A stretch of DNA of 64,000 nucleotides, taken from the NCBI GenBank assembly GCA_963664485.1, contig OY761459.1, positions 69,275 to 133,274 of the forward strand. Reading direction: 5' to 3'. Source of the DNA: Syntrophales bacterium. Lineage in GTDB: Bacteria; Desulfobacterota; Syntrophia; Syntrophales; UBA2210. Below, piece by piece: positions 50,416 to 60,905 of this stretch. Numbering within the stretch: the first letter of the stretch is position 1; every line of letters starts with the position of its first letter. A program made the translations under genes and the position numbers. A model generated the notes under the pieces. It worked only from the letters and a program-made list of their open reading frames with translations. It had not been told where the DNA came from and did no database searches.

Positions 50416-51157
50416 AAATAGGGACACTCCCCTATTTTTTCGGCCGTCCTTTCTTCCCAACCAACAATTTCCGGGAAAGTAAGTTCTCCAGGCTTTTCAC
50501 AAAATCGACACTTCCCAAAGGGCGTCCCGTCGATGTCGCCCTTCGAATCTTATCATCCATCGCCGGATCCTGCCGAACCAGGAAACGCCCATAATCCGCC
50601 CGTTCGCTTGCGTCGAACCATAACGATGATTTTACCAGCTCGTCTTCCACACCCTCCACCGTTGCGCGGCAACTCGACCACGGATATGCCAGGGGATCCT
50701 TTACAATGCCGGCTTTAACCGGATTGATTTCGATGTATCGCATGACAGACCACAGGTATATGTCATCACTTACAATAGAGGAGTAAAACCGGTTCTGCCA
50801 CAATCGACCGCTGCGGTGATATTTTCGATTTACATACTGAGTATATATAAGATTTGTTCTGCCCACACAACGTGCGAGGGCATCCTCTTCCAGAGGTACG
50901 GCAAGCAGATGAACATGATTGCTCATCAGGCAATAGGACAAAATATTAACCCTGCACGAATCGCAGTAGTTTTTGAGCGTGGACTTGTAAAAGTTTCTGT
51001 CTTTGTCGTCAAAAAAGACATCTTCTCGATTGTTACCTCGCTGAGTAACATGATGAGGATAGCCGGGCAATGTAACGCGTGCTATTCTTGGCATGTGTCA
51101 CCTCTATACTCATTTATTTTTATTATCAACGTAAAAATGGGGGAGTGTCCCTATTTT
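50416..51157 (-). mobile_element. RAYT unit: REP-associated tyrosine transposase gene bracketed by inverted REP hairpins
   Basis: AAATAGGGACACTCCCCTATTTTTT (50416-50440) and its inverted copy AAAAATGGGGGAGTGTCCCTATTTT (51133-51157) flank the ORF. Confidence 0.8.
50432..51094 (-). CDS. IS200-like Y1 HUH transposase of the REP-associated (RAYT) type
   Basis: 220 aa; HHVTQRGNNREDVF, HUH motif CLMSNHVHLL, catalytic-Tyr region MRYIEINPVKAG. No adjacent tnpB-like gene. Confidence 0.85.
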   Translation of the reverse strand: MPRIARVTLPGYPHHVTQRGNNREDVFFDDKDRNFYKSTLKNYCDSCRVNILSYCLMSNHVHLLAVPLEEDALARCVGRTNLIYTQYVNRKYHRSGRLWQNRFYSSIVSDDIYLWSVMRYIEINPVKAGIVKDPLAYPWSSCRATVEGVEDELVKSSLWFDASERADYGRFLVRQDPAMDDKIRRATSTGRPLGSVDFVKSLENLLSRKLLVGKKGRPKK

Positions 51158-51950: not shown

Positions 51951-54900
51951 TTATAACATCTTCTTGATGGCGCCCAGGTAAGGACCCGAACGATCCAGGT
52001 AGAACGACAACGCCCCGGAAAAGTTTCTCCCCACAATACCGTCGACAAACAACTGGCTTATCTCCCTGTTCCGTTCGAGAACCGACTGGACACGAACGAA
52101 TATCCGGCGTTCTTCGGCAGACATTCCCTTCATAATAGCGCGCAAAGCGACCACGGCACGGGGCTGGTACATCCAGAAGTACAACAGGTCGAGTGCATTG
52201 ATAATCACTATTTTTTCCAGGTCGCGCGCCTCGGCCTGTATGGTAAGAATGAAATTCTCCGGTGATTCAAGCATCTCGCATACGTCGGATTCGGGGAAAA
52301 GCATCTCCATGCGGTCATATGTATCGAATACCTGCCCGATCTTACTTCGATAATCCAGCATGCGGGTACGTATATTCTGGTAACGGTCGGAAAGCCCCTC
52401 GATAAAACCGGCCACACAGTCGGATGCGCCTTTGGAAATCACGGCCGCCCATTTCTGGAGAACGGCATTCACATCCACGATACCGTACGCGGAGAGCATG
52501 CTTCCCGCCGCCATGTTGAAGAGAACGGCGATGGGAATAGACAGGATGGTCCGGAAAAAGTTTCCTAACACAGCGCCCCGGGACAATCCGCGAAAGGCAT
52601 TATGCGTAGAGATATACAGACCGTTTGCGATAGCTATCACGGTATACATCATGACGGGACTGGTAGCGGCCGTAACACCGAACATCCTGTCGAGGAGAAG
52701 CGTTTTGACCAGGTAATCGAGCAGGGGAACGGAAAATCCCGTAAAGAGAAGAGAATCCGTCAGGCGATCCCAACTGACATAATCGTTCCACTTCAACAGC
52801 GGCGAGCGCCGGATACCGCCGCCGCCCATGACGGATTGCAGTATGTTGCGCGCCCCGGTGATGCCGAACCATATGAATGCTCCGAACCATGCCAGCAGCC
52901 ACCAGTCCTTGGTAAGGTAAAACGTAAAAAACGCCGGCACGAATCCGATCAGCACCTTCAGCCAGTTCTTCAACCCGCTGTTGAGATATTCCCACGATAT
53001 CTTCCGGGGGTTCTCCGACAGATCGGGAGATCCGAGATAGCGCCTATTGTGGAGTTCCTCGTCGAACCCGCCGAGCGTGACGATATTGCCCTCCGTCTCC
53101 GTACCCATGTGCGTGGAAAATCTGTTGATTTCCCATTCGTTCCGCCTTTTTTTCCCTACAAGGCGCAGCCCCGGGATACAACAGGCGATCCGGTAAAAGG
53201 CATTCACCAGCCTGCTCGAACTGCTGTGCGGAATGTAGCTGGTACGCAGATAAACACCCGTATTGACAGGAATCGTAAGGCGTGAAGCAGGCGGCGATTT
53301 CTTTATCTCCCTGCGCGCCCTGATCGGAAGCGTATCCGTGATAACAAGCCCCATCCCGTAGAGATGGTGTGAACGCCCGGTGGAATCACTGCCGATGCGG
53401 CTCTTTAAAAGCATTCCCTGATAATAAGACCGGAACGTCGATATATCATGCAGGATCTTTGTGAGCTTGTCGACTCTCCCGGGATCTTTGGGACGCAGGT
53501 GCCGGATGGATTCCCGTATAATACGTTTCAACGCTATGATATTGTCTTCGTTTATCGCACCCTGTAACTCGCTGATTTCCACATTATGCGGCTCCCTGCC
53601 GGTCACATAATCCTTGAGATTGAATATCTCCAGGTGAGTTATCATCCCCTTGCAGTCATAGAGCAGTTCGATCACATCTTCGACACCCAGATTGCCCAGG
53701 GCAAGCGTAATGCTGTAACCGGCATTCAGATATCCCAGCCGCCTGAGGAGCTCGAACGGCGACAGCGTCAGCAACCCGGGGACATCCTCACCGTCGCGCG
53801 GTATAGCGGGATCCGGCACGGAAGGATTGCGACACGGACGAAGATACCCGTCGACAATAGCCTCCGAATCCAGCCTGTTCAGCGCATCCGTAATACCGGT
53901 TATCCGCCGGCGCTCTTCATCCTCCGCCCCGGCATATCGCACCCTGAGACCGGCAACATAATCCTTCATAACCGGCAGCATCTTTGCGTGCGCGTACTCG
54001 GCCAGATGCAGCAGGGACGCCTGACCGACCCCCACAAAAGACATGAACTCACTGCGATCCAGGAGCGGCGGGGAAAACCCGTAACGCTCTTCTATCGCGC
54101 AGCGGTGCCTGTTATTAAACTCGTCGAGAACCGCCATTATGTAACGCCGCTGGTACTCGGAAACTTTCCGGCCCTCGGCCATGAAAGACTGGACAGGCTC
54201 TTCCTTCAGAAAATTAAGGTAATCCTGCGTATCCAGGAGACCCCGCGGCGCCCAGATAAACAGGACATACTTGTCGTGAAACCTCGCGGAGAACTCGACG
54301 CCGACCCTTACCCTGATACCCATGATCTCGGCCGCCTTAAGGAGTTCCTCGGCGACGTCCGCCTTCACATTATTATAATAAATCACCTTGAGCCTTCGGA
54401 TCCCCTTGATCCAGGCATCCATTATCAGATGCGTCGGAGATTTTCTGCCCTTGGTGTTGACATCGTGGACATGATCGTCGGTCGCGACCTGGTTCCATTC
54501 CTCCGGCATCTCCAGCAGGTGATAACGCCGCAATTGCTCCCGCACGATACGCGGTTTCCCCGAAGCCGTGATACGGAAATCATGCGCGAGTTCGAGCTGC
54601 CGGCGATAGTCTCCGCGGGACTGGACCAGCTTCTTCATGATCTGCAGGAGAACCCGCGCGGTATTCTTGCGAAGAAAACTCTGGGCGCTGTAAAGCACCT
54701 CTTCGCGAAGAGAACGCAGGGCACCCAGGCGATCCTCCGCCTCGCCCATCTCCAGAGAATTAAGCAGATGAATTACCGCGTAAGCGACGCGCAACTCCTT
54801 CGACGCCGCCATCTCCTTGATCCCGTGAGGGTGCAGATACGGATTCAGAAGAGTCTTGAGATACTCCCTCGACTTGTCCCTGTTGAGAACCTCATTGACA

Positions 54901-54965
54901 ATAACCAGCAGGTCATGATCCTGCTTGTCAAAAAGTATCCTCGAAGCACCGCTTTCCATCATCAT
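51951..54965 (-). CDS. Large uncharacterised protein: ~660-aa soluble N-terminal region plus a C-terminal multi-pass membrane domain
   Basis: Long ORF with no frame breaks. Hydrophobic helices include WLKVLIGFVPAFFTFYL, WWLLAWFGAFIWFGITG, SPVMMYTVIAIANGLYI and FFRTILSIPIAVLFNMAAG. I recognise no family signature. The track start at 54998 lies inside a MITE, so the MMMESG start (54965) is preferred. Confidence 0.6.
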   Translation of the reverse strand: MMMESGASRILFDKQDHDLLVIVNEVLNRDKSREYLKTLLNPYLHPHGIKEMAASKELRVAYAVIHLLNSLEMGEAEDRLGALRSLREEVLYSAQSFLRKNTARVLLQIMKKLVQSRGDYRRQLELAHDFRITASGKPRIVREQLRRYHLLEMPEEWNQVATDDHVHDVNTKGRKSPTHLIMDAWIKGIRRLKVIYYNNVKADVAEELLKAAEIMGIRVRVGVEFSARFHDKYVLFIWAPRGLLDTQDYLNFLKEEPVQSFMAEGRKVSEYQRRYIMAVLDEFNNRHRCAIEERYGFSPPLLDRSEFMSFVGVGQASLLHLAEYAHAKMLPVMKDYVAGLRVRYAGAEDEERRRITGITDALNRLDSEAIVDGYLRPCRNPSVPDPAIPRDGEDVPGLLTLSPFELLRRLGYLNAGYSITLALGNLGVEDVIELLYDCKGMITHLEIFNLKDYVTGREPHNVEISELQGAINEDNIIALKRIIRESIRHLRPKDPGRVDKLTKILHDISTFRSYYQGMLLKSRIGSDSTGRSHHLYGMGLVITDTLPIRARREIKKSPPASRLTIPVNTGVYLRTSYIPHSSSSRLVNAFYRIACCIPGLRLVGKKRRNEWEINRFSTHMGTETEGNIVTLGGFDEELHNRRYLGSPDLSENPRKISWEYLNSGLKNWLKVLIGFVPAFFTFYLTKDWWLLAWFGAFIWFGITGARNILQSVMGGGGIRRSPLLKWNDYVSWDRLTDSLLFTGFSVPLLDYLVKTLLLDRMFGVTAATSPVMMYTVIAIANGLYISTHNAFRGLSRGAVLGNFFRTILSIPIAVLFNMAAGSMLSAYGIVDVNAVLQKWAAVISKGASDCVAGFIEGLSDRYQNIRTRMLDYRSKIGQVFDTYDRMEMLFPESDVCEMLESPENFILTIQAEARDLEKIVIINALDLLYFWMYQPRAVVALRAIMKGMSAEERRIFVRVQSVLERNREISQLFVDGIVGRNFSGALSFYLDRSGPYLGAIKKML

Positions 54966-54971
54966 ATCCTT

Positions 54972-55135
54972 AAATAGGGACACTCCCCTATTTTTCATTA
55001 GCCACCCGTCTCGTTATTCCAACTCTCTTTTTGTCATTCCGGTGAAAACCGGAATCCAGTTCTTTTTACCTTCTCATCAAACACCAAAAATTCAACATTA
55101 AAAATTGGTAAAAAAAATGGGGGAGTGTCCCTATT
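54972..55135. mobile_element. REPIN/MITE-like element, copy 1 (REP forward, ~115-nt spacer, REP inverted)
   Basis: REP units at 54972-54995 and 55110-55135. The spacer contains the hairpin TCATTCCGGTGAAAACCGGAATCCAG. Near-identical to copies at 59342 and 60737. Confidence 0.85.
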
Positions 55136-57680
55136 AAAAGAATTTTTCCAGGAGCTTTTGCGCGCCTTTCTGTATGTAGTAGGATGAAAGCGCGTTGAGC
55201 ACATATTCGGTATCGAGGAAGGGTATCGGCTTCCTGATCGACCCTTTCAGGGTAATCGGCAGCACCATGTTGCCCTGATTGTTAAGCAGCGCCCTGAGAA
55301 TATCCGCCTTTTCAACCAGTTGCAGGGAATGGCGTTTCGACAGGATCACCGTCCCCTTCAGATCGAGCGTTTTAGCCGCCCGGTCCACGGTACCTTTCAG
55401 GGACGCCACCGAGTCGGTCGCCTTGCTGGTCTGTATGTTTCTCAGGTTCAGCGACTCTACCCGTATAATATTGTCTTTCATGTCGAATGTTCCGTCCAGG
55501 GAATCGAAACGCGTCGATTCATGCCGGGCCACCTCGCCGCCCTGATAGCTGAGGAACCGGCCGATGCCTTCCAGCCCGAAGAGACTGTCCAGGACACTCT
55601 CAACCAGGTTGAAATTCTTCCATTCTCCCTTCGCGAGCAGCACGGACCCCCTGGCGCCGAGCTTCGGCTGCCTGGCCGCTCCTCCCTCCGCGTGCAGTTT
55701 CCCCGAAAGGGTTCCTGCAAAAGTATCCTTATGTTCGGTCAGGGTATCCAGCACCGTACCCACGTCGACCCCCTGTATCGACGGATCAAAAGCCCATCCC
55801 TTTTCCCGGATATCGTAGAACCCCGTGCCCTGTATACCGCCGTCGAATGCTTTGACGTTAAGAGAATCGATGGTTACCCGGCCGGGTCTGTAGCTGAAAT
55901 CCGACTTCGCGGCAGCGAAGGGAATCGCCGCGACAGTGCCTTTACCGATGGCAAGCGTTCCCCGTCCCAGCAGATCTTTTTTACGTGTTCCGCTGATGTT
56001 CAGTTTCATCCCTTCGAGAAGGCATGTCTTCGGCGGATTCGCGGCATCTTTCGCCTGGGGCAGTTGGAATCCGATCCGGCCGGACTCCGCACGCACGTTC
56101 AGAGACAGATTGTCCGGCGGCCCTTTCGCGGAAGCGTTCAGAGCTACCGCACCCTTGAGCGCGTACGCTTCCATAGCGGGAATCAGCGCGCCCCAGCCAT
56201 CCAGTTCCGTCCCGCCTGTTTCCAGGGTAACGTCTACGGACGGTCCCGGCTTTCCCGTTCTCACCTTTCCCGCGGCGTGCGCGGCCAGGTTATGCAGCCT
56301 GCAGTCGATTTTTTCGAACGAGAGATCCCTGCCCTTCTTCATCCCCGCTATATCGAGCGAAAGCGCAGTTCCCGGGGGTTTTCTGAACGCGTTCCCGTAC
56401 GCGATGTTCATGGCATCGGTGTTAATACCGGCATCGATCTTAAAATCTGAAACGCTTCCCGACGAAGCGAACCGCAGGGAGGCCGGACCATCAATGACAA
56501 GCGCCTCCGGCATGGCGCCGATGTATGGGGCAAGCAGGGCGATTAACGTTTTGGGCATCAGTTTTTCGGACGTGCCCGTGATATTCCACTTCGGGCCGGC
56601 AAGAAACCCATCGACTGTTCCGGAGAGGTTTATACTGTTTTCATTTACCGTAATGACCGCCGGCTCTACCGAAAGATGTTGTTTCGCCCAGGCAAGGGAT
56701 AAATTCGCCTTGAGACCGGCGTCGATTTTCCCCGACGGCACGGGCGCTTTCTTTTCAGCTTTTTCCTGAAAAACGAGATCACGCACGGATATCACAGTAT
56801 CCGCGGTCAGGATGTCGCCCAGCGATCCCTTTCCCTTTATATCAGCGGTAACGGCACCCGATTGGACCGCTGCCGGCAGAAGAGCGGATATCCGGGCAAG
56901 AGGGAATGATTTGACGCCCAGATCAATCGAGATTTGCATGTTTTGCACATTAACCGGAGCGCCCAGCGGCCCCAGAGTTCCCTCTATGGAAAAATTTTCC
57001 GATCCGCTTTCGAAAAGATCCGCACTCAGATCGACGGAGACAGGCCGATCGAAAGAAACATCTTCCATGGTGAGATCCAGGGCGTCAACAACCAGGTTGC
57101 CGGCGCCGGGCAGCAGCATCTCGTCGCGGTACAGAACCCTCCCATCCACAATCTGAAGCTCCCTCACGCTGAGAGGCGGTGCCGCGGATTTTGAAGCTCC
57201 GGTATCGGAGGCATCCCCGGCCGCCCAGGCGACGGAAGGCCCTATATGACGAGTTGACGGTGTTCCGGAGGTGTTTCCCTTCTTCTTCAGGGAAGCGAGA
57301 ATATCGTCGAAACTGAATTCCCCGGCGGCATTGCGCGCCACGGAAATTACGGGCCGCTTCAGAACAATCTTCTTGACCTTGATCTCTTTCTTCAGCAGCG
57401 GAAAGAATTCGACCTGCACCTGAAGGCTGTCGAGCGAGACGAAATCGGCGGAAGAAAACCGGGGATTATCCGCAACCCGCAACCCTTGAAGCTCCGCGCC
57501 CAGACCGGACAATATCGTCAGCTCGATATGCGCGAAATCGACATCACGATCCAGATAAGGTTTTATCTGAGCCAGGATCGTTCCCTTGTAACGGTCGAGA
57601 TTAACAAAGAAAGGCGCGAGCATAACGAGAACCAGACAGATAACCACAACAACGATAACACCTGCGATAATCTTCTTCAT
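55134..57680 (-). CDS. AsmA-family outer-membrane biogenesis/lipid-transport protein
   Basis: MKKIIAGVIVVVVICLVLVMLAPFFVNLDRYKG (N-terminal anchor), then a long beta-rich region typical of AsmA-like proteins. The track start MGECPYF lies inside a REP and is rejected. Confidence 0.78.
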   Translation of the reverse strand: MKKIIAGVIVVVVICLVLVMLAPFFVNLDRYKGTILAQIKPYLDRDVDFAHIELTILSGLGAELQGLRVADNPRFSSADFVSLDSLQVQVEFFPLLKKEIKVKKIVLKRPVISVARNAAGEFSFDDILASLKKKGNTSGTPSTRHIGPSVAWAAGDASDTGASKSAAPPLSVRELQIVDGRVLYRDEMLLPGAGNLVVDALDLTMEDVSFDRPVSVDLSADLFESGSENFSIEGTLGPLGAPVNVQNMQISIDLGVKSFPLARISALLPAAVQSGAVTADIKGKGSLGDILTADTVISVRDLVFQEKAEKKAPVPSGKIDAGLKANLSLAWAKQHLSVEPAVITVNENSINLSGTVDGFLAGPKWNITGTSEKLMPKTLIALLAPYIGAMPEALVIDGPASLRFASSGSVSDFKIDAGINTDAMNIAYGNAFRKPPGTALSLDIAGMKKGRDLSFEKIDCRLHNLAAHAAGKVRTGKPGPSVDVTLETGGTELDGWGALIPAMEAYALKGAVALNASAKGPPDNLSLNVRAESGRIGFQLPQAKDAANPPKTCLLEGMKLNISGTRKKDLLGRGTLAIGKGTVAAIPFAAAKSDFSYRPGRVTIDSLNVKAFDGGIQGTGFYDIREKGWAFDPSIQGVDVGTVLDTLTEHKDTFAGTLSGKLHAEGGAARQPKLGARGSVLLAKGEWKNFNLVESVLDSLFGLEGIGRFLSYQGGEVARHESTRFDSLDGTFDMKDNIIRVESLNLRNIQTSKATDSVASLKGTVDRAAKTLDLKGTVILSKRHSLQLVEKADILRALLNNQGNMVLPITLKGSIRKPIPFLDTEYVLNALSSYYIQKGAQKLLEKFF

Positions 57681-57692
57681 CCTTACACCCCT

Positions 57693-57893
57693 AAAATAGG
57701 GACACTCCCCCATTTTTCACTATTTCTCATTAAAATAGGGACACTCCCCCATTTTTTCCTAAGCCTGCCCCGCACTTGATAAGGGGTTATTCCATACCGA
57801 TAGAGATCCGGCTTCCGCTGGAATGATAAAGAAACAGGATTCCGGTTTTCACCGGAATGACTAAGTAAGAAAAAATAGGGGAGTGTCCCTATT
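57693..57893. mobile_element. Rearranged REPIN/MITE-like element, copy 2 (two tandem forward REPs, different spacer, one inverted REP)
   Basis: REP at 57693-57717, 57732-57757 (same orientation) and 57870-57893 (inverted). The spacer carries AAGCCTGCCCCGCACTTGATAAGGGG and the CCGG hairpin in flipped orientation. Confidence 0.8.
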
Positions 57894-59088
57894 ATTTTTT
57901 GAGTTTTTTGCGCAGGAGATCGCCGAGTGTTCCCATTGAGGAATGTGTCTTTCCAAGATATTCGCGATAGTCGTCGTCTCCGGGCGCATCCGGTTCGCCT
58001 TTTCCCCTTGCTTCGCGTTCCGGCACCAGCGTTATACGTCGTTTCTCGAGATCGATACCCTGTACGGTCACTTCCACCGTCTGTCCCTGTACCAGTACTT
58101 CACTCGGATGGTTAAGCCGCTTTCCACCGCCCAGTTTTGATATATGAATCAGTCCGTCCACGCCGCCCTCGAGGGTTATGAAAGCTCCGAACTTTGTCAG
58201 CCGCGCGACCGTTCCGGTATGGGAAGACCCAGCGGGATATTTAGCTTCAACATTATCCCAGGGATCGGGGAGCGTTGCCTTACGGCTGAGAGACACACGG
58301 TTCTTCTCCCAGTCCAGTTTCAGAATGACCGTTTCCAGTTCCTGGCCGATGGAGAGCACCTCGCTAACATCCTCAACCCTGGTCCATCCGATCTCCGAGA
58401 TGGGAAGCAATCCCTGCATTCCGCCGATATCTACAAACGCTCCGAAATCCTGGATCGAAGCCACAGTCCCTTTGATCTTCATCCCCTCGCGCAATTCTTC
58501 CTTCAGCTCCTCGAGCCTGACACGCATTTCCGCTTCCCGGATCGCCCTGTTGGACAGGATTACGTTACGGCCCTTTTCGCCATATTCCGTAATGATAAAG
58601 AGCATCCGCTGCCCCACATATTCGGCGGTAGCTCCCTGCCCTCGAAGCCCCATCTGGGAATACGGGCAAAATGCCGCAGTGTCTCCGGCTATCTTGACCT
58701 GAAATCCCCCTTTTATTTCCTTTTCGATCACCCCTTCGACCGGGATATCGTTACGCATCGCCTCTTCAAGAAAGTTCAATCCGGTTGCGCCCCTGGTAAT
58801 GCGGGTGGTAAACATCAACTCATCGTTTCGCGACGACAGGAAATAGGCCATGATCGTATCGCCGACCTTCACGTTGAGTTCACCGCTTGCATCGAGCATT
58901 TCCTTTTTATCAAGGATACCCTCGCTTTTTCCGCCGAGGTCCAGAAAAATCCAGTCCGCACCGATATCGACCACCCTGGCTTCCATACGCTGGCCAGGCT
59001 CCAGCCATCCGGGTCCGGTAACGCTTTCATTCAGGAGTTCTTCGAACGAGACTTTATTGTTGTTTTCTTCGACAGTCATATCACTCAT
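57892..59088 (-). CDS. S1 RNA-binding-domain protein (four S1 repeats, ribosomal protein S1-like)
   Basis: 398 aa with repeated S1 signatures (GxxVxGxVxxIxxxGAFVDIGG, GLIHISK). Confidence 0.8.
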   Translation of the reverse strand: MSDMTVEENNNKVSFEELLNESVTGPGWLEPGQRMEARVVDIGADWIFLDLGGKSEGILDKKEMLDASGELNVKVGDTIMAYFLSSRNDELMFTTRITRGATGLNFLEEAMRNDIPVEGVIEKEIKGGFQVKIAGDTAAFCPYSQMGLRGQGATAEYVGQRMLFIITEYGEKGRNVILSNRAIREAEMRVRLEELKEELREGMKIKGTVASIQDFGAFVDIGGMQGLLPISEIGWTRVEDVSEVLSIGQELETVILKLDWEKNRVSLSRKATLPDPWDNVEAKYPAGSSHTGTVARLTKFGAFITLEGGVDGLIHISKLGGGKRLNHPSEVLVQGQTVEVTVQGIDLEKRRITLVPEREARGKGEPDAPGDDDYREYLGKTHSSMGTLGDLLRKKLKK

Positions 59089-59341: not shown

Positions 59342-59507
59342 AAAAATAGGGACACTCCCCCATTTTTCATTAGCCACCCGTCCCGTTATTCCAACTCTCT
59401 TTTTGTCATTCCGGTGAGAACCGGAATCCAGTCTTTTTGCCTTCTCATCAAACACCAAAAATTCAACATTAAAAATTGGTAAAAAAATAGGGGAGTGTCC
59501 CTATTTT
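59342..59507. mobile_element. REPIN/MITE-like element, copy 3
   Basis: REP units at 59342-59367 and 59481-59507; spacer is the same as in copies 1 and 4. Confidence 0.85.
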
Positions 59508-60657
59508 CCCCGCATCACGCCAACCTACAACGTTCACACCTTTATGCTGATAATTTTCTGTTCCACCGTAGATCAGCGTCGGATTGATCGCCGCATCGCC
59601 CGCCAGGGCCATCCACCTGTCCAGACCGGAGAAAAAATGACCGGTAACGGTCCTACCGGATTTGATCTCAACAGGGGTAATCCGGTCCACCGTGTTCAAT
59701 CAGAATATCCACCTCGACACCATTGCTGTCGCGCCAGAAATGAATGTTAGGACGCTCGCCCCTGTTGAGGAATAATTTCATCAATTCTGCGACTACAAAG
59801 GTTTCAAAAATGTTTCCCCTGAGAGGGTGGGTTTCCATCTGTTCGGGCGTCTGTATGCCCAGCAGCCAGGATACGAGGCCAACATCATAAAAATAGAGCT
59901 TGGGGGCCTTGACCAACCTCTTGTTAAAGTTCACATGATGCGGGCGAAGCTGGAACAGAATGTAGCTGGCCTCCAGCACCGATATCCAGGCCTTAACTGT
60001 ATTGTGGGAAATACCGCATTCCGTGGCAAGAGATGAATAGTTCAGCAGTTGCCCCGTACGTCCGGCGCAAAGACGCACAAAGCGCTGAAAGGCCTCCAGT
60101 TCCTGCACCTTGAGAACCTGCCGGACATCGCGCTCCAGGTACGCCGTTACATAAGCGCCAAACCATGCCCGTACAGGGACATCGCGATCATAAAGCGGAG
60201 GATAGCCGCCGGTATACAGCATCTGGTCAATATTTTGTGGTTGCTTAGGAGACTTTGCAAGTTCCTCCAGCGAAAAAGGAAGCAACTCCACAAAAGCGGT
60301 TCTTCCAGCCAGCGACTGAGTGATGCCGGACATAAGTCCAAACTGCCGGGAACCGGTCAAGACAAAAAGCCCCATGCGTCCATCGGCATCGATCAGAGTC
60401 TGTAGATAAGAAAGGATTTCGGGGCAGCGCTGTACCTCGTCCAGAACAGCGCCATCGGGAAAGCGTTTCAGAAAAGAGCGGGGGTCCTCCCGGGCCATCA
60501 GCCGCGCATCCGGGTCCTCCAGCGACACATAAGGCTTGTCAGGGAACACGATCTTCGCGAGAGTAGTCTTGCCTGACTGACGCGGCCCGTTAATGGTCAC
60601 GACGGGAAAACCCCTCAGCAGGGAGTGAATTGTACTTTCGGCTTTACGTTGTATCAT
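59469..60657 (-). pseudogene. AAA-family ATPase with DUF4143-like C-terminal region, frameshifted near 59684
   Basis: MIQRKAESTIHSLLRGFPVVTINGPRQSGKTTLAK (Walker A). The first ORF ends ..DILIEHGGPDYPC, and ORF 59469..59699 continues VDRITPVEIKSGRTV. Removing one C gives IEHGGRITPVEIKSG. The last 12 codons read into MITE copy 3. Confidence 0.75.
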
Positions 60658-60736
60658 GAACAATATGCTATTCAGATTTATGTATATTGTCAATCATTTT
60701 GTCAATCTGCATAATCACGCAACCCTTCAGCCTTCT

Positions 60737-60905
60737 AAAAATAGGGACACTCCCCCATTTTTCATTAGCCACCCGTCTCGTTATTCCGACTCTCTTTTTG
60801 TCATTCCGGTGAAAACCGGAATCCAGTCTTTTTGCCTTCTCATCAAACACCAAAAATTTAACATTAAAAATTGGTAAAAAAAATGGGGGAGTGTCCCTAT
60901 TTTTG
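60737..60905. mobile_element. REPIN/MITE-like element, copy 4
   Basis: REP units at 60737-60762 and 60876-60905; spacer as in copies 1 and 3. Confidence 0.85.

Follow-up and report, generated by a model that had tools for sequence, protein, structure and literature searches.

A probable TIRtron in a Syntrophales bacterium: a resident subclass 2.1 Y1 transposase-like gene between inverted cognate repeats, with a local cluster of REPIN-like cassettes

A 64,000 nt stretch of contig OY761459.1 from a Syntrophales bacterium (assembly GCA_963664485.1, positions 69,275 to 133,274 of the forward strand), here called the window, carries a gene for a Y1/HUH tyrosine transposase-like protein between two inverted copies of a 25 nt repeat. 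This locus is probably a TIRtron, a single-copy, vertically inherited Y1/HUH gene of subclass 2.1 placed between inverted cognate repeats. The repeats had been called repetitive extragenic palindromes (REP) in a preliminary description of the window, but judged by sequence and position the REP of this locus appears to be the conserved terminal inverted repeat (TIR) of the enzyme family. The locus should be seen as an example of an arrangement that has been described before, rather than as a new kind of system. Its contribution is modest: around this subclass 2.1 gene there has been clear amplification and recent exchange of cassettes that resemble REPIN, the inverted REP doublets able to form long hairpins.

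The open reading frame (ORF) has the motifs PHHVTQRGNNRE, SNHVHLL, LWQNRF and MRYIEINPV and a PWSS tail. The HUH motif is H60-V-H62 and the catalytic tyrosine is Y120, after which an 80 aa helical extension completes the 220 aa protein; an HUH motif and a single catalytic tyrosine in the alpha-helix that follows the beta-sheet core are the defining features of the Y1 HUH superfamily. The preliminary description had reported a minus-strand ORF of 220 aa with HUH and tyrosine motifs and without a tnpB-like partner, and the sequence and the neighbouring genes agree with this: no TnpB-like gene adjoins the transposase gene, the neighbours being a GDPD phosphodiesterase gene and glpA of a glpABC cluster. 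That the enzyme is of the Y1, REP-associated tyrosine transposase (RAYT) kind is likewise borne out by hidden Markov model searches. The protein matches Pfam Y1_Tnp (PF01797) with E = 2e-16 and scores 82.5 bits against the NCBIfam model REP_Tyr_transpos, for REP-associated tyrosine transposases (cut-off 80), whereas the NCBIfam IS200/IS605 model gives 21.6 bits, far below its cut-off of 55.

Structural comparisons lead to the same family. Searched against the PDB as a single sequence, the protein finds TnpArep of Escherichia coli (4ER8) only at E = 0.055; with a profile of 50 homologues the same structure is the best match (8e-5), followed by the IS200 and IS608 TnpA structures (0.003–0.015). 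The AlphaFold model, with a mean predicted local distance difference test score of 87.4, has three C-terminal helices and is closest in fold to 4ER8 (E = 3e-8, target-normalised template modelling score 0.68), with the TnpA of IS608, ISDra2 and IS200 next. Y120 aligns to Y115 of E. coli TnpArep, where the Y115F substitution gives a catalytically dead mutant (PMC8266576). Residues H14, H15, H60, H62, W99, Q100, Y120, N124 and P125 are invariant in the 50 homologues, as are the N-terminal motif PHH.TQRGNN and the C-terminal motif GRP...F...E...G.P. The C-terminal 81 aa have no Pfam match at E values up to 10, and none was found for this region in the 50 homologues either.

The bracketing of the ORF by inverted repeats at 50416–50440 and 51133–51157 was found with exactly the sequence first described. 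These two units, AAATAGGGACACTCCCCTATTTTTT and AAAAATGGGGGAGTGTCCCTATTTT, make a 27 nt inverted pair that is 93% complementary. The 25 nt consensus unit, AAAATAGGGACACTCCCC[C/T]ATTTTT, has the form A-run-TAGGGACACTCCCC-Y-A-T-run, and its two strands differ only in having a CACT or an AGTG loop at the centre of a GGGA....TCCC mini-hairpin. Upstream of the gene, the unit is separated from the ATG by approximately 45 nt; the downstream one overlaps the stop codon. The stop codon of the transposase gene sits inside the repeat in all four lineages compared. At many sites the TAG within the unit likewise terminates the gene that comes before it (window 50432–50434; positions 4534, 8546 and 9915 of contig L019, 2630 of L021 and 1471 of L001, all from related lineages).

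The association of the repeat with the gene extends well beyond these lineages. Homologues at 56–62% identity (contigs L023, L024 and L025) are found in unrelated gene contexts, each flanked by inverted (G)GGGACACTTCCC, with one repeat 43–47 nt before the ATG and the other 3 nt after the stop codon. The repeat core GGGACACTYCCC thus flanks these homologues at gene distances like those of the window, where the corresponding values are 45 nt and a 1 nt overlap. They carry GGGGACAC or AGGGACAC as a GGGGWSAS-like core and have no, or almost no, extra repeat copies within 10 kb. Since the core flanks Y1 homologues in unrelated genomes, the repeat is tied to the enzyme and not to host genes. TTGAC(A/G)-type hexamers stand in L023 to L025 at the place equivalent to that of the promoter-like hexamers of the window. 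More distant homologues (39% in L014, 39% on a Pseudomonas aeruginosa plasmid, 34–36% on IMG/VR contigs) have other TIRs at the same positions; of the three distant TIR types, two fit GGGGWSAS exactly (GGGGACAG: L014 and the P. aeruginosa plasmid), while the third fits at 7 of 8 positions (GGTGACAG).

The features of gene and repeat are those of one published class. Subclass 2.1 enzymes have NHVH, W[EQ] and YIELNP motifs, a median length of 238 aa and a C-terminal tail with a conserved SS, and are prevalent in epsilon-, beta- and delta-proteobacteria (PMC6006769, Table 1). This subclass corresponds to Group 1 of Bertels (PMC5581495) and to most of the TIRYTs of Di Nocera (PMC3733652). TIRYT genes are enclosed by TIRs that contain GGGGWSAS, not by REPs tagged with GTAG, and certain TIR families are moderately repeated, in dimers or clusters (PMC3733652). 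The motifs NHVH, WQ and YIEINP (5 of the 6 positions of YIELNP), the WSS tail and the length of 220 aa in the window agree with Table 1 of PMC6006769. The TIRYT likeness covers the NHVH, WQ and YIE[LI]NP motifs, a size of about 220–240 aa with the SS motif in a C-terminal extension, GGGGWSAS-like TIRs around the gene with the downstream one overlapping its 3' end, TIR families in dimers or clusters, and the prevalence of the class in delta-proteobacteria. In the window and the homologues the TIRs stand 43–47 nt before the ATG and 0–3 nt from the stop codon, in line with the similar gene distances described for subclass 2.1. The broader features of class 2 TnpA-Y1 (PMC6006769) are found as well, namely a Y---NP signature, no TnpB, no IS features and a single syntenic locus in the four lineages. 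The earlier remark that no characterised system was known from this kind of anaerobe was overstated, given this prevalence in delta-proteobacteria (PMC6006769, Table 1). A literature search pairing RAYT with Deltaproteobacteria gave no result. In other respects the window differs from subclass 2.1 of Quentin et al. 2018, who found no REP-like sequences close to genes of this subclass (PMC6006769). Its TIR is partly self-complementary, at least nine extra units lie within 10 kb, and there are 165 bp cassettes with conserved interiors, one of them recently replaced.

The arrangement had initially been read as the one known from enterobacteria and pseudomonads, that is, as a canonical RAYT/REPIN system (Bertels Groups 2 and 3) in which a domesticated transposase maintains GTAG-tagged REP hairpins throughout the genome. 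This reading did not hold up and is now rather improbable. It shares with the locus a single-copy Y1 gene, inherited vertically and set between inverted cognate repeats, the extragenic location of the repeats, and nearby non-autonomous inverted doublets that form long hairpins; the REP_Tyr_transpos score slightly above cut-off and the position of E. coli TnpArep (Group 2) as best structural match and nearest solved fold also speak for it. The canonical 5' GT[AG]G guide tetranucleotide is, however, absent, with ATAG in its place in all 11 units of the window and TTTG, GTGG or CATA in the homologues. The REP-associated subclasses have DHLH and YIHYNP (2.2) or DH[LF]H and YI[VI]ANP (2.5) (PMC6006769, Table 1), not the NHVH and YIEINP found here, which with the length of the protein fit subclass 2.1. 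The weak single-sequence similarity to 4ER8 also counts against it, as do the distribution of copies described below and a 117 nt spacer that is longer than in typical REPIN. The family in the window appears small and local, in contrast to the tens to hundreds of copies found genome-wide with the Group 2 enzyme of E. coli and the Group 3 enzymes of Pseudomonas and Stenotrophomonas.

The folding of single units is also much weaker than in those systems. Each unit had been described as a hairpin with the loop ACACTC. As single-stranded DNA the T variant (50416–50440) does fold in this way, with an 8 bp stem and a 6 nt loop (-5.2 kcal/mol, z = -2.9), but the C variant (51133–51157) folds otherwise and more weakly, through AAAAT/ATTTT and GGGA/TCCC pairing with a bulge (-4.1 kcal/mol, z = -1.9). 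C-variant units as a group fold at -3.8 to -4.1 kcal/mol (z about -1.9). Across all units the single folds range from -3.8 to -5.2 kcal/mol (z = -1.8 to -2.9). Paired units, on the other hand, form stems of 23–26 bp and are strong structures: a 174 nt doublet element folds at -29 kcal/mol (z = -5.5) and the short doublets of relatives at -26 to -27 kcal/mol (z = -9 to -10). Weak lone folds together with strong stems between units suggest that the unit is more like a TIR with a small palindrome, GGGA-CAC(T)-TCCC, than a stable REP hairpin.

The transposase gene is a long-term resident of its site. Orthologues at 95%, 83% and 77% identity are found on contigs of other assemblies, one of which is a metagenome-assembled genome (MAG) labelled Syntrophobacterales. 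The gene is immediately upstream of glpA in all four lineages, one of which has a glutamate dehydrogenase gene added on the opposite side. Pairwise synonymous divergence (dS) of the transposase gene is 0.14–1.2, with a ratio of non-synonymous to synonymous divergence (dN/dS) of 0.11–0.18; glpA, glpB, the GDPD gene and a gene for a protein of about 1000 aa have the same range of dS and similar dN/dS. The common syntenic site, the neighbour-like dS and the low dN/dS indicate vertical inheritance of the gene at a single site, with purifying selection acting over the whole time that synonymous sites are able to record. The preliminary proposal of a resident, domesticated-like gene is thereby supported. 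Domesticated RAYTs have been described as showing such residency (PMC5581495), which is the opposite of what marks an active insertion sequence (IS). In all four lineages the G+C content at third codon positions is lower in the transposase gene than in the neighbouring genes (0.47–0.54 as against 0.57–0.69; in the window 0.51 as against 0.59–0.67), despite this long residence.

Another possibility is that the locus is an ordinary active IS of IS200/IS605 type, or that the repeats are a family of miniature inverted-repeat transposable elements (MITE) moved, with TA target duplications, by a DDE transposase encoded elsewhere. The Y1_Tnp domain, the TA that flanks the units (TA-GGGACAC...GTGTCCC-TA) and the occurrence of some distant relatives on plasmids, with one record showing three places, would fit such an element, and with the TnpA of IS608 and ISDra2 the protein shares the HUH/Y1 fold and, presumably, single-strand cutting and rejoining through a 5'-phosphotyrosine. 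Yet either origin is very improbable. The gene has been fixed at one syntenic chromosomal site across dS above 1, it scores far below the IS200 cut-off, its end repeats are inverted rather than on the same strand, and it has Y---NP instead of Y---Q and no TnpB. None of the marks of IS200/IS605 elements (multiple copies, Y---Q, one-strand subterminal hairpins, TnpB) was found, and no DDE gene in the window bears these ends. No target-site duplications beyond A/T runs were seen at the ends of the five elements in the window. A MITE of Tc1/IS630 type was rejected, because the flanking TA is not kept in homologues, which have TG, CA or GT, so that the TA is no target duplication.

The repeat is strongly amplified on one side of the gene. 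There are 11 perfect copies of the 14-mer TAGGGACACTCCCC in the window, all between 50419 and 60899, as against 0.38 expected from shuffled sequence, and none of 100 shuffles reached 11. The earlier count of nine further units within the next 10 kb is thus upheld. With three mismatches allowed, three extra matches appear elsewhere in the window and are chance-like. The nine units additional to the gene-flanking pair form four inverted doublets, with the units about 143 nt apart, and one solo unit (Table 1). All units are intergenic or extend no further than the terminal codons of called ORFs, although intergenic sequence is just 9.3% of the window. No copies are present in positions 1–50400, which include 25 intergenic gaps of at least 25 nt.

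The doublets are approximately 165 bp each. Three have type-1 interiors of 117 nt that are 96–98% identical although they lie between unrelated genes, and the fourth has a type-2 interior. Near-identical interiors at unrelated sites indicate that whole cassettes have been copied, not units alone. In this they resemble REPIN in the sense of Bertels and Rainey (2011), being inverted doublets copied as a unit, with an equal repeat flanking the transposase gene, though with a spacer longer than usual.

Table 1. Coordinates of the transposase gene, its flanking repeats and the dispersed repeat elements in the window
Feature	Position	Strand	Remarks
Downstream TIR/REP unit, T variant, AAATAGGGACACTCCCCTATTTTTT	50416..50440	+	Includes the TAG that terminates the transposase gene; its end is 9 nt ahead of the start codon of glpA
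Y1/HUH tyrosine transposase-like gene, 220 aa	50432..51094	-	RAYT family, probable subclass 2.1 / Group 1 / TIRYT type; domain, motif, fold and dN/dS evidence
AT-rich leader, 38 nt, from upstream TIR to ATG	51095..51132	-	Putative promoter-like hexamers TTGATA ... TATAGA and putative AGAGGTG ribosome-binding site
Upstream TIR/REP unit, C variant, AAAAATGGGGGAGTGTCCCTATTTT	51133..51157	-	Last 9 GDPD codons read through the unit
REPIN-like doublet, 117 nt type-1 interior with second hairpin GTCATTCCGGTGAAAACCGGAATCCAG	54971..55137	.	Orthologous site in L001/L002/L004 has flipped type-2 interior and identical outer junctions
Solo TIR/REP unit	57693..57717	+	Unit search and fold
REPIN-like doublet, type-2 interior	57732..57895	.	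Unit search and interior comparison
REPIN-like doublet, type-1 interior	59343..59507	.	Interior 96–98% identical to other type-1 copies
REPIN-like doublet, type-1 interior	60738..60903	.	Three independent assemblies of a relative break at this element

A second palindromic repeat, GTCATWCCGGYGARRRCCGGWATCCAG(TCTTTT), occurs in 7 copies in the window, with 0 expected. One copy is found in each doublet (55033, 57835, 59405 and 60800). The other three, at 62500–62690, are on the same strand, between a glycosyltransferase gene and an epimerase gene; they are terminator-like on the plus strand, while the flanking genes are on the minus strand. No copies of this second repeat are present in positions 1–55000. 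Both repeat families are confined to about 12 kb (50.4–62.7 kb) lying transcriptionally upstream of the transposase gene, and in three related lineages (L001, L019 and L021) they are likewise clustered on that side alone.

Comparison between lineages shows turnover of the cassettes. In the relative with 95% identity, every unit is at the same site as in the window. At the junction of the AsmA gene and the gene for the 1000 aa protein, the window has a type-1 interior, whereas three assemblies of the relative (L001, L002 and L004) have a type-2 interior in the opposite orientation, with identical outer junctions. The window cassette at this site is 98% identical to other type-1 interiors, and that of the relative approximately 90% identical to other type-2 interiors. 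It is most likely, on these identities, that the cassette was replaced in situ, recently and in the lineage of the window. The more distant lineages differ in which intergenic sites are occupied, in spacer length (50–159 nt) and in the interiors, and the lineage at 83% identity has its own 83 bp type of doublet, also present on non-syntenic contigs. Among the orthologous intergenic regions compared no clean empty site was found, each having some form of the repeat or another gene order. The 14-mer core is unchanged, or changed by one base (TTCCC), between lineages with dS near 1; the TTCCC variant is a perfect 11 bp hairpin of -8.8 kcal/mol. Constancy of the core over this divergence calls either for selection or for a constrained template from which copying has continued.

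The extent of the family was assessed with the strict 22-mer AATAGGGACACTCCCCYATTTT in public collections of genome and metagenome contigs, where the source species is not among the matches. Five stretches were found in each collection. The related MAG AUK149 has the 22-mer on two contigs only, one of which bears the transposase gene. The repeat family looks small and appears to have expanded locally, beside the gene, in this lineage. This fits the low counts reported for Group 1, in which flanking 16-mers have about 12 occurrences (PMC5581495), better than it fits a genome-wide REPIN population, and the small number of stretches, like the 50 kb of the window without a copy, counts against the canonical RAYT/REPIN system.

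In the principal rival explanation the units serve the host as cis-elements (bidirectional terminators, hairpins that stabilise mRNA, or a protein-binding site) that spread and are homogenised by recombination, with a Y1 gene that does not act on the dispersed copies. The structure of the unit, in which a short GC stem stands between an A-run and a T-run, is compatible with this, and several units are terminator-like by score. The units are placed exactly at gene ends and often provide the stop codon, the exchange of the cassette preserved both junctions as gene conversion would, and the conservation of the sequence over dS of about 1 is consistent with selection on a function. Host elements ought, however, to occur in the remaining 50 kb of the window as well, where there are none. 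Each stem has only 3 G-C pairs and no Rfam family matched in the window. The same core is found at fixed distances from homologous Y1 genes in unrelated genomes without other copies nearby. This explanation is judged unlikely.

The TIRtron remains the preferred reading, although several points weigh against it. Placement in subclass 2.1 was made from motifs and architecture by comparison with Table 1 of PMC6006769. The core AGGGACAC in the window agrees with GGGGWSAS at 7 of 8 positions, one mismatch from the TIRYT consensus, and the helix-turn-helix-like C-terminal similarity described for some members of subclass 2.1 (Bac_DnaA_C, HTH_23, HTH_28) was not detected by Pfam. Lone units are marginal hairpins, hence recognition of a hairpin by the enzyme is uncertain. 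Exchange of cassettes could be due to homologous recombination or gene conversion through the 25 nt repeats, with no involvement of the enzyme. Finally, the published biochemical assays cover only enzymes of Groups 2 and 3, and no subclass 2.1 or Group 1 enzyme has been assayed (PMC8266576).

The best-supported mechanism for the TIRtron is proposed by analogy with IS608 TnpA and with the TnpArep proteins of E. coli, Stenotrophomonas and Marinomonas. In it the enzyme would recognise one strand of the repeat as single-stranded DNA, and Y120 would cleave beside the repeat, forming a 5'-phosphotyrosine link before the strands are rejoined. Segments bounded by two units could thereby be excised, inserted or swapped, and the local cluster on one side would follow if the enzyme acted preferentially close to the gene that encodes it. 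By the same analogy, the repeats may have been spread by this enzyme, as the preliminary description supposed.

More tentatively, the subclass 2.1 enzyme might actively maintain a small local population of cassettes bounded by its own terminal repeats, swapping or flipping them whole and in place in the manner of a single-strand site-specific recombinase. This is a possibility to which less than even weight is given. If true, the locus would represent a living stage midway from autonomous elements bounded by TIRs to domesticated RAYT/REPIN systems. Subclass 2.1, or Group 1, is the most widespread RAYT-like class and the largest class that is not of IS type, and it has neither a biochemical model nor an agreed function. 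The locus is compact and well defined, with a 25 nt cognate repeat, cassettes of two types, one of which was recently replaced by the other at one site, and orthologues at graded divergence. It is therefore suited to asking whether such enzymes cut and rejoin the repeats that flank them, and by what route element ends give rise to REPIN-like populations.

Further TIR types were seen among the distant homologues. A second type, AAAGGGGACAGATTTATTTT, fits GGGGWSAS exactly and flanks homologues at 39% identity on a metagenome contig and a P. aeruginosa plasmid (L014, positions 1790–1860 and 975–1000; L037). It is also present as a doublet in L024 at approximately 9700–9790, and single genomes can therefore hold two TIR systems. 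The IMG/VR contigs L027 to L034 (27–32 kb, classified as viral) carry homologues at 34–36% identity, with the TIR GAATTACGGTGACAGTGCACT approximately 50 nt upstream and just downstream of the gene. The outer flanks differ among these contigs, which suggests that the whole unit of gene plus TIRs moves there.

Two neighbouring genes have features of their own. The AAA_14/DUF4143 ATPase gene at 59496–60693 (minus strand) has a frameshift near 59671–59684 in comparison with the intact 393 aa orthologue in L001, and is either a pseudogene or affected by a sequencing error. The protein of about 1000 aa encoded at 51951–54998 (minus strand) has no Pfam match, is conserved under strong purifying selection (dN/dS of about 0.10 in the four lineages), and is always encoded beside the GDPD gene.

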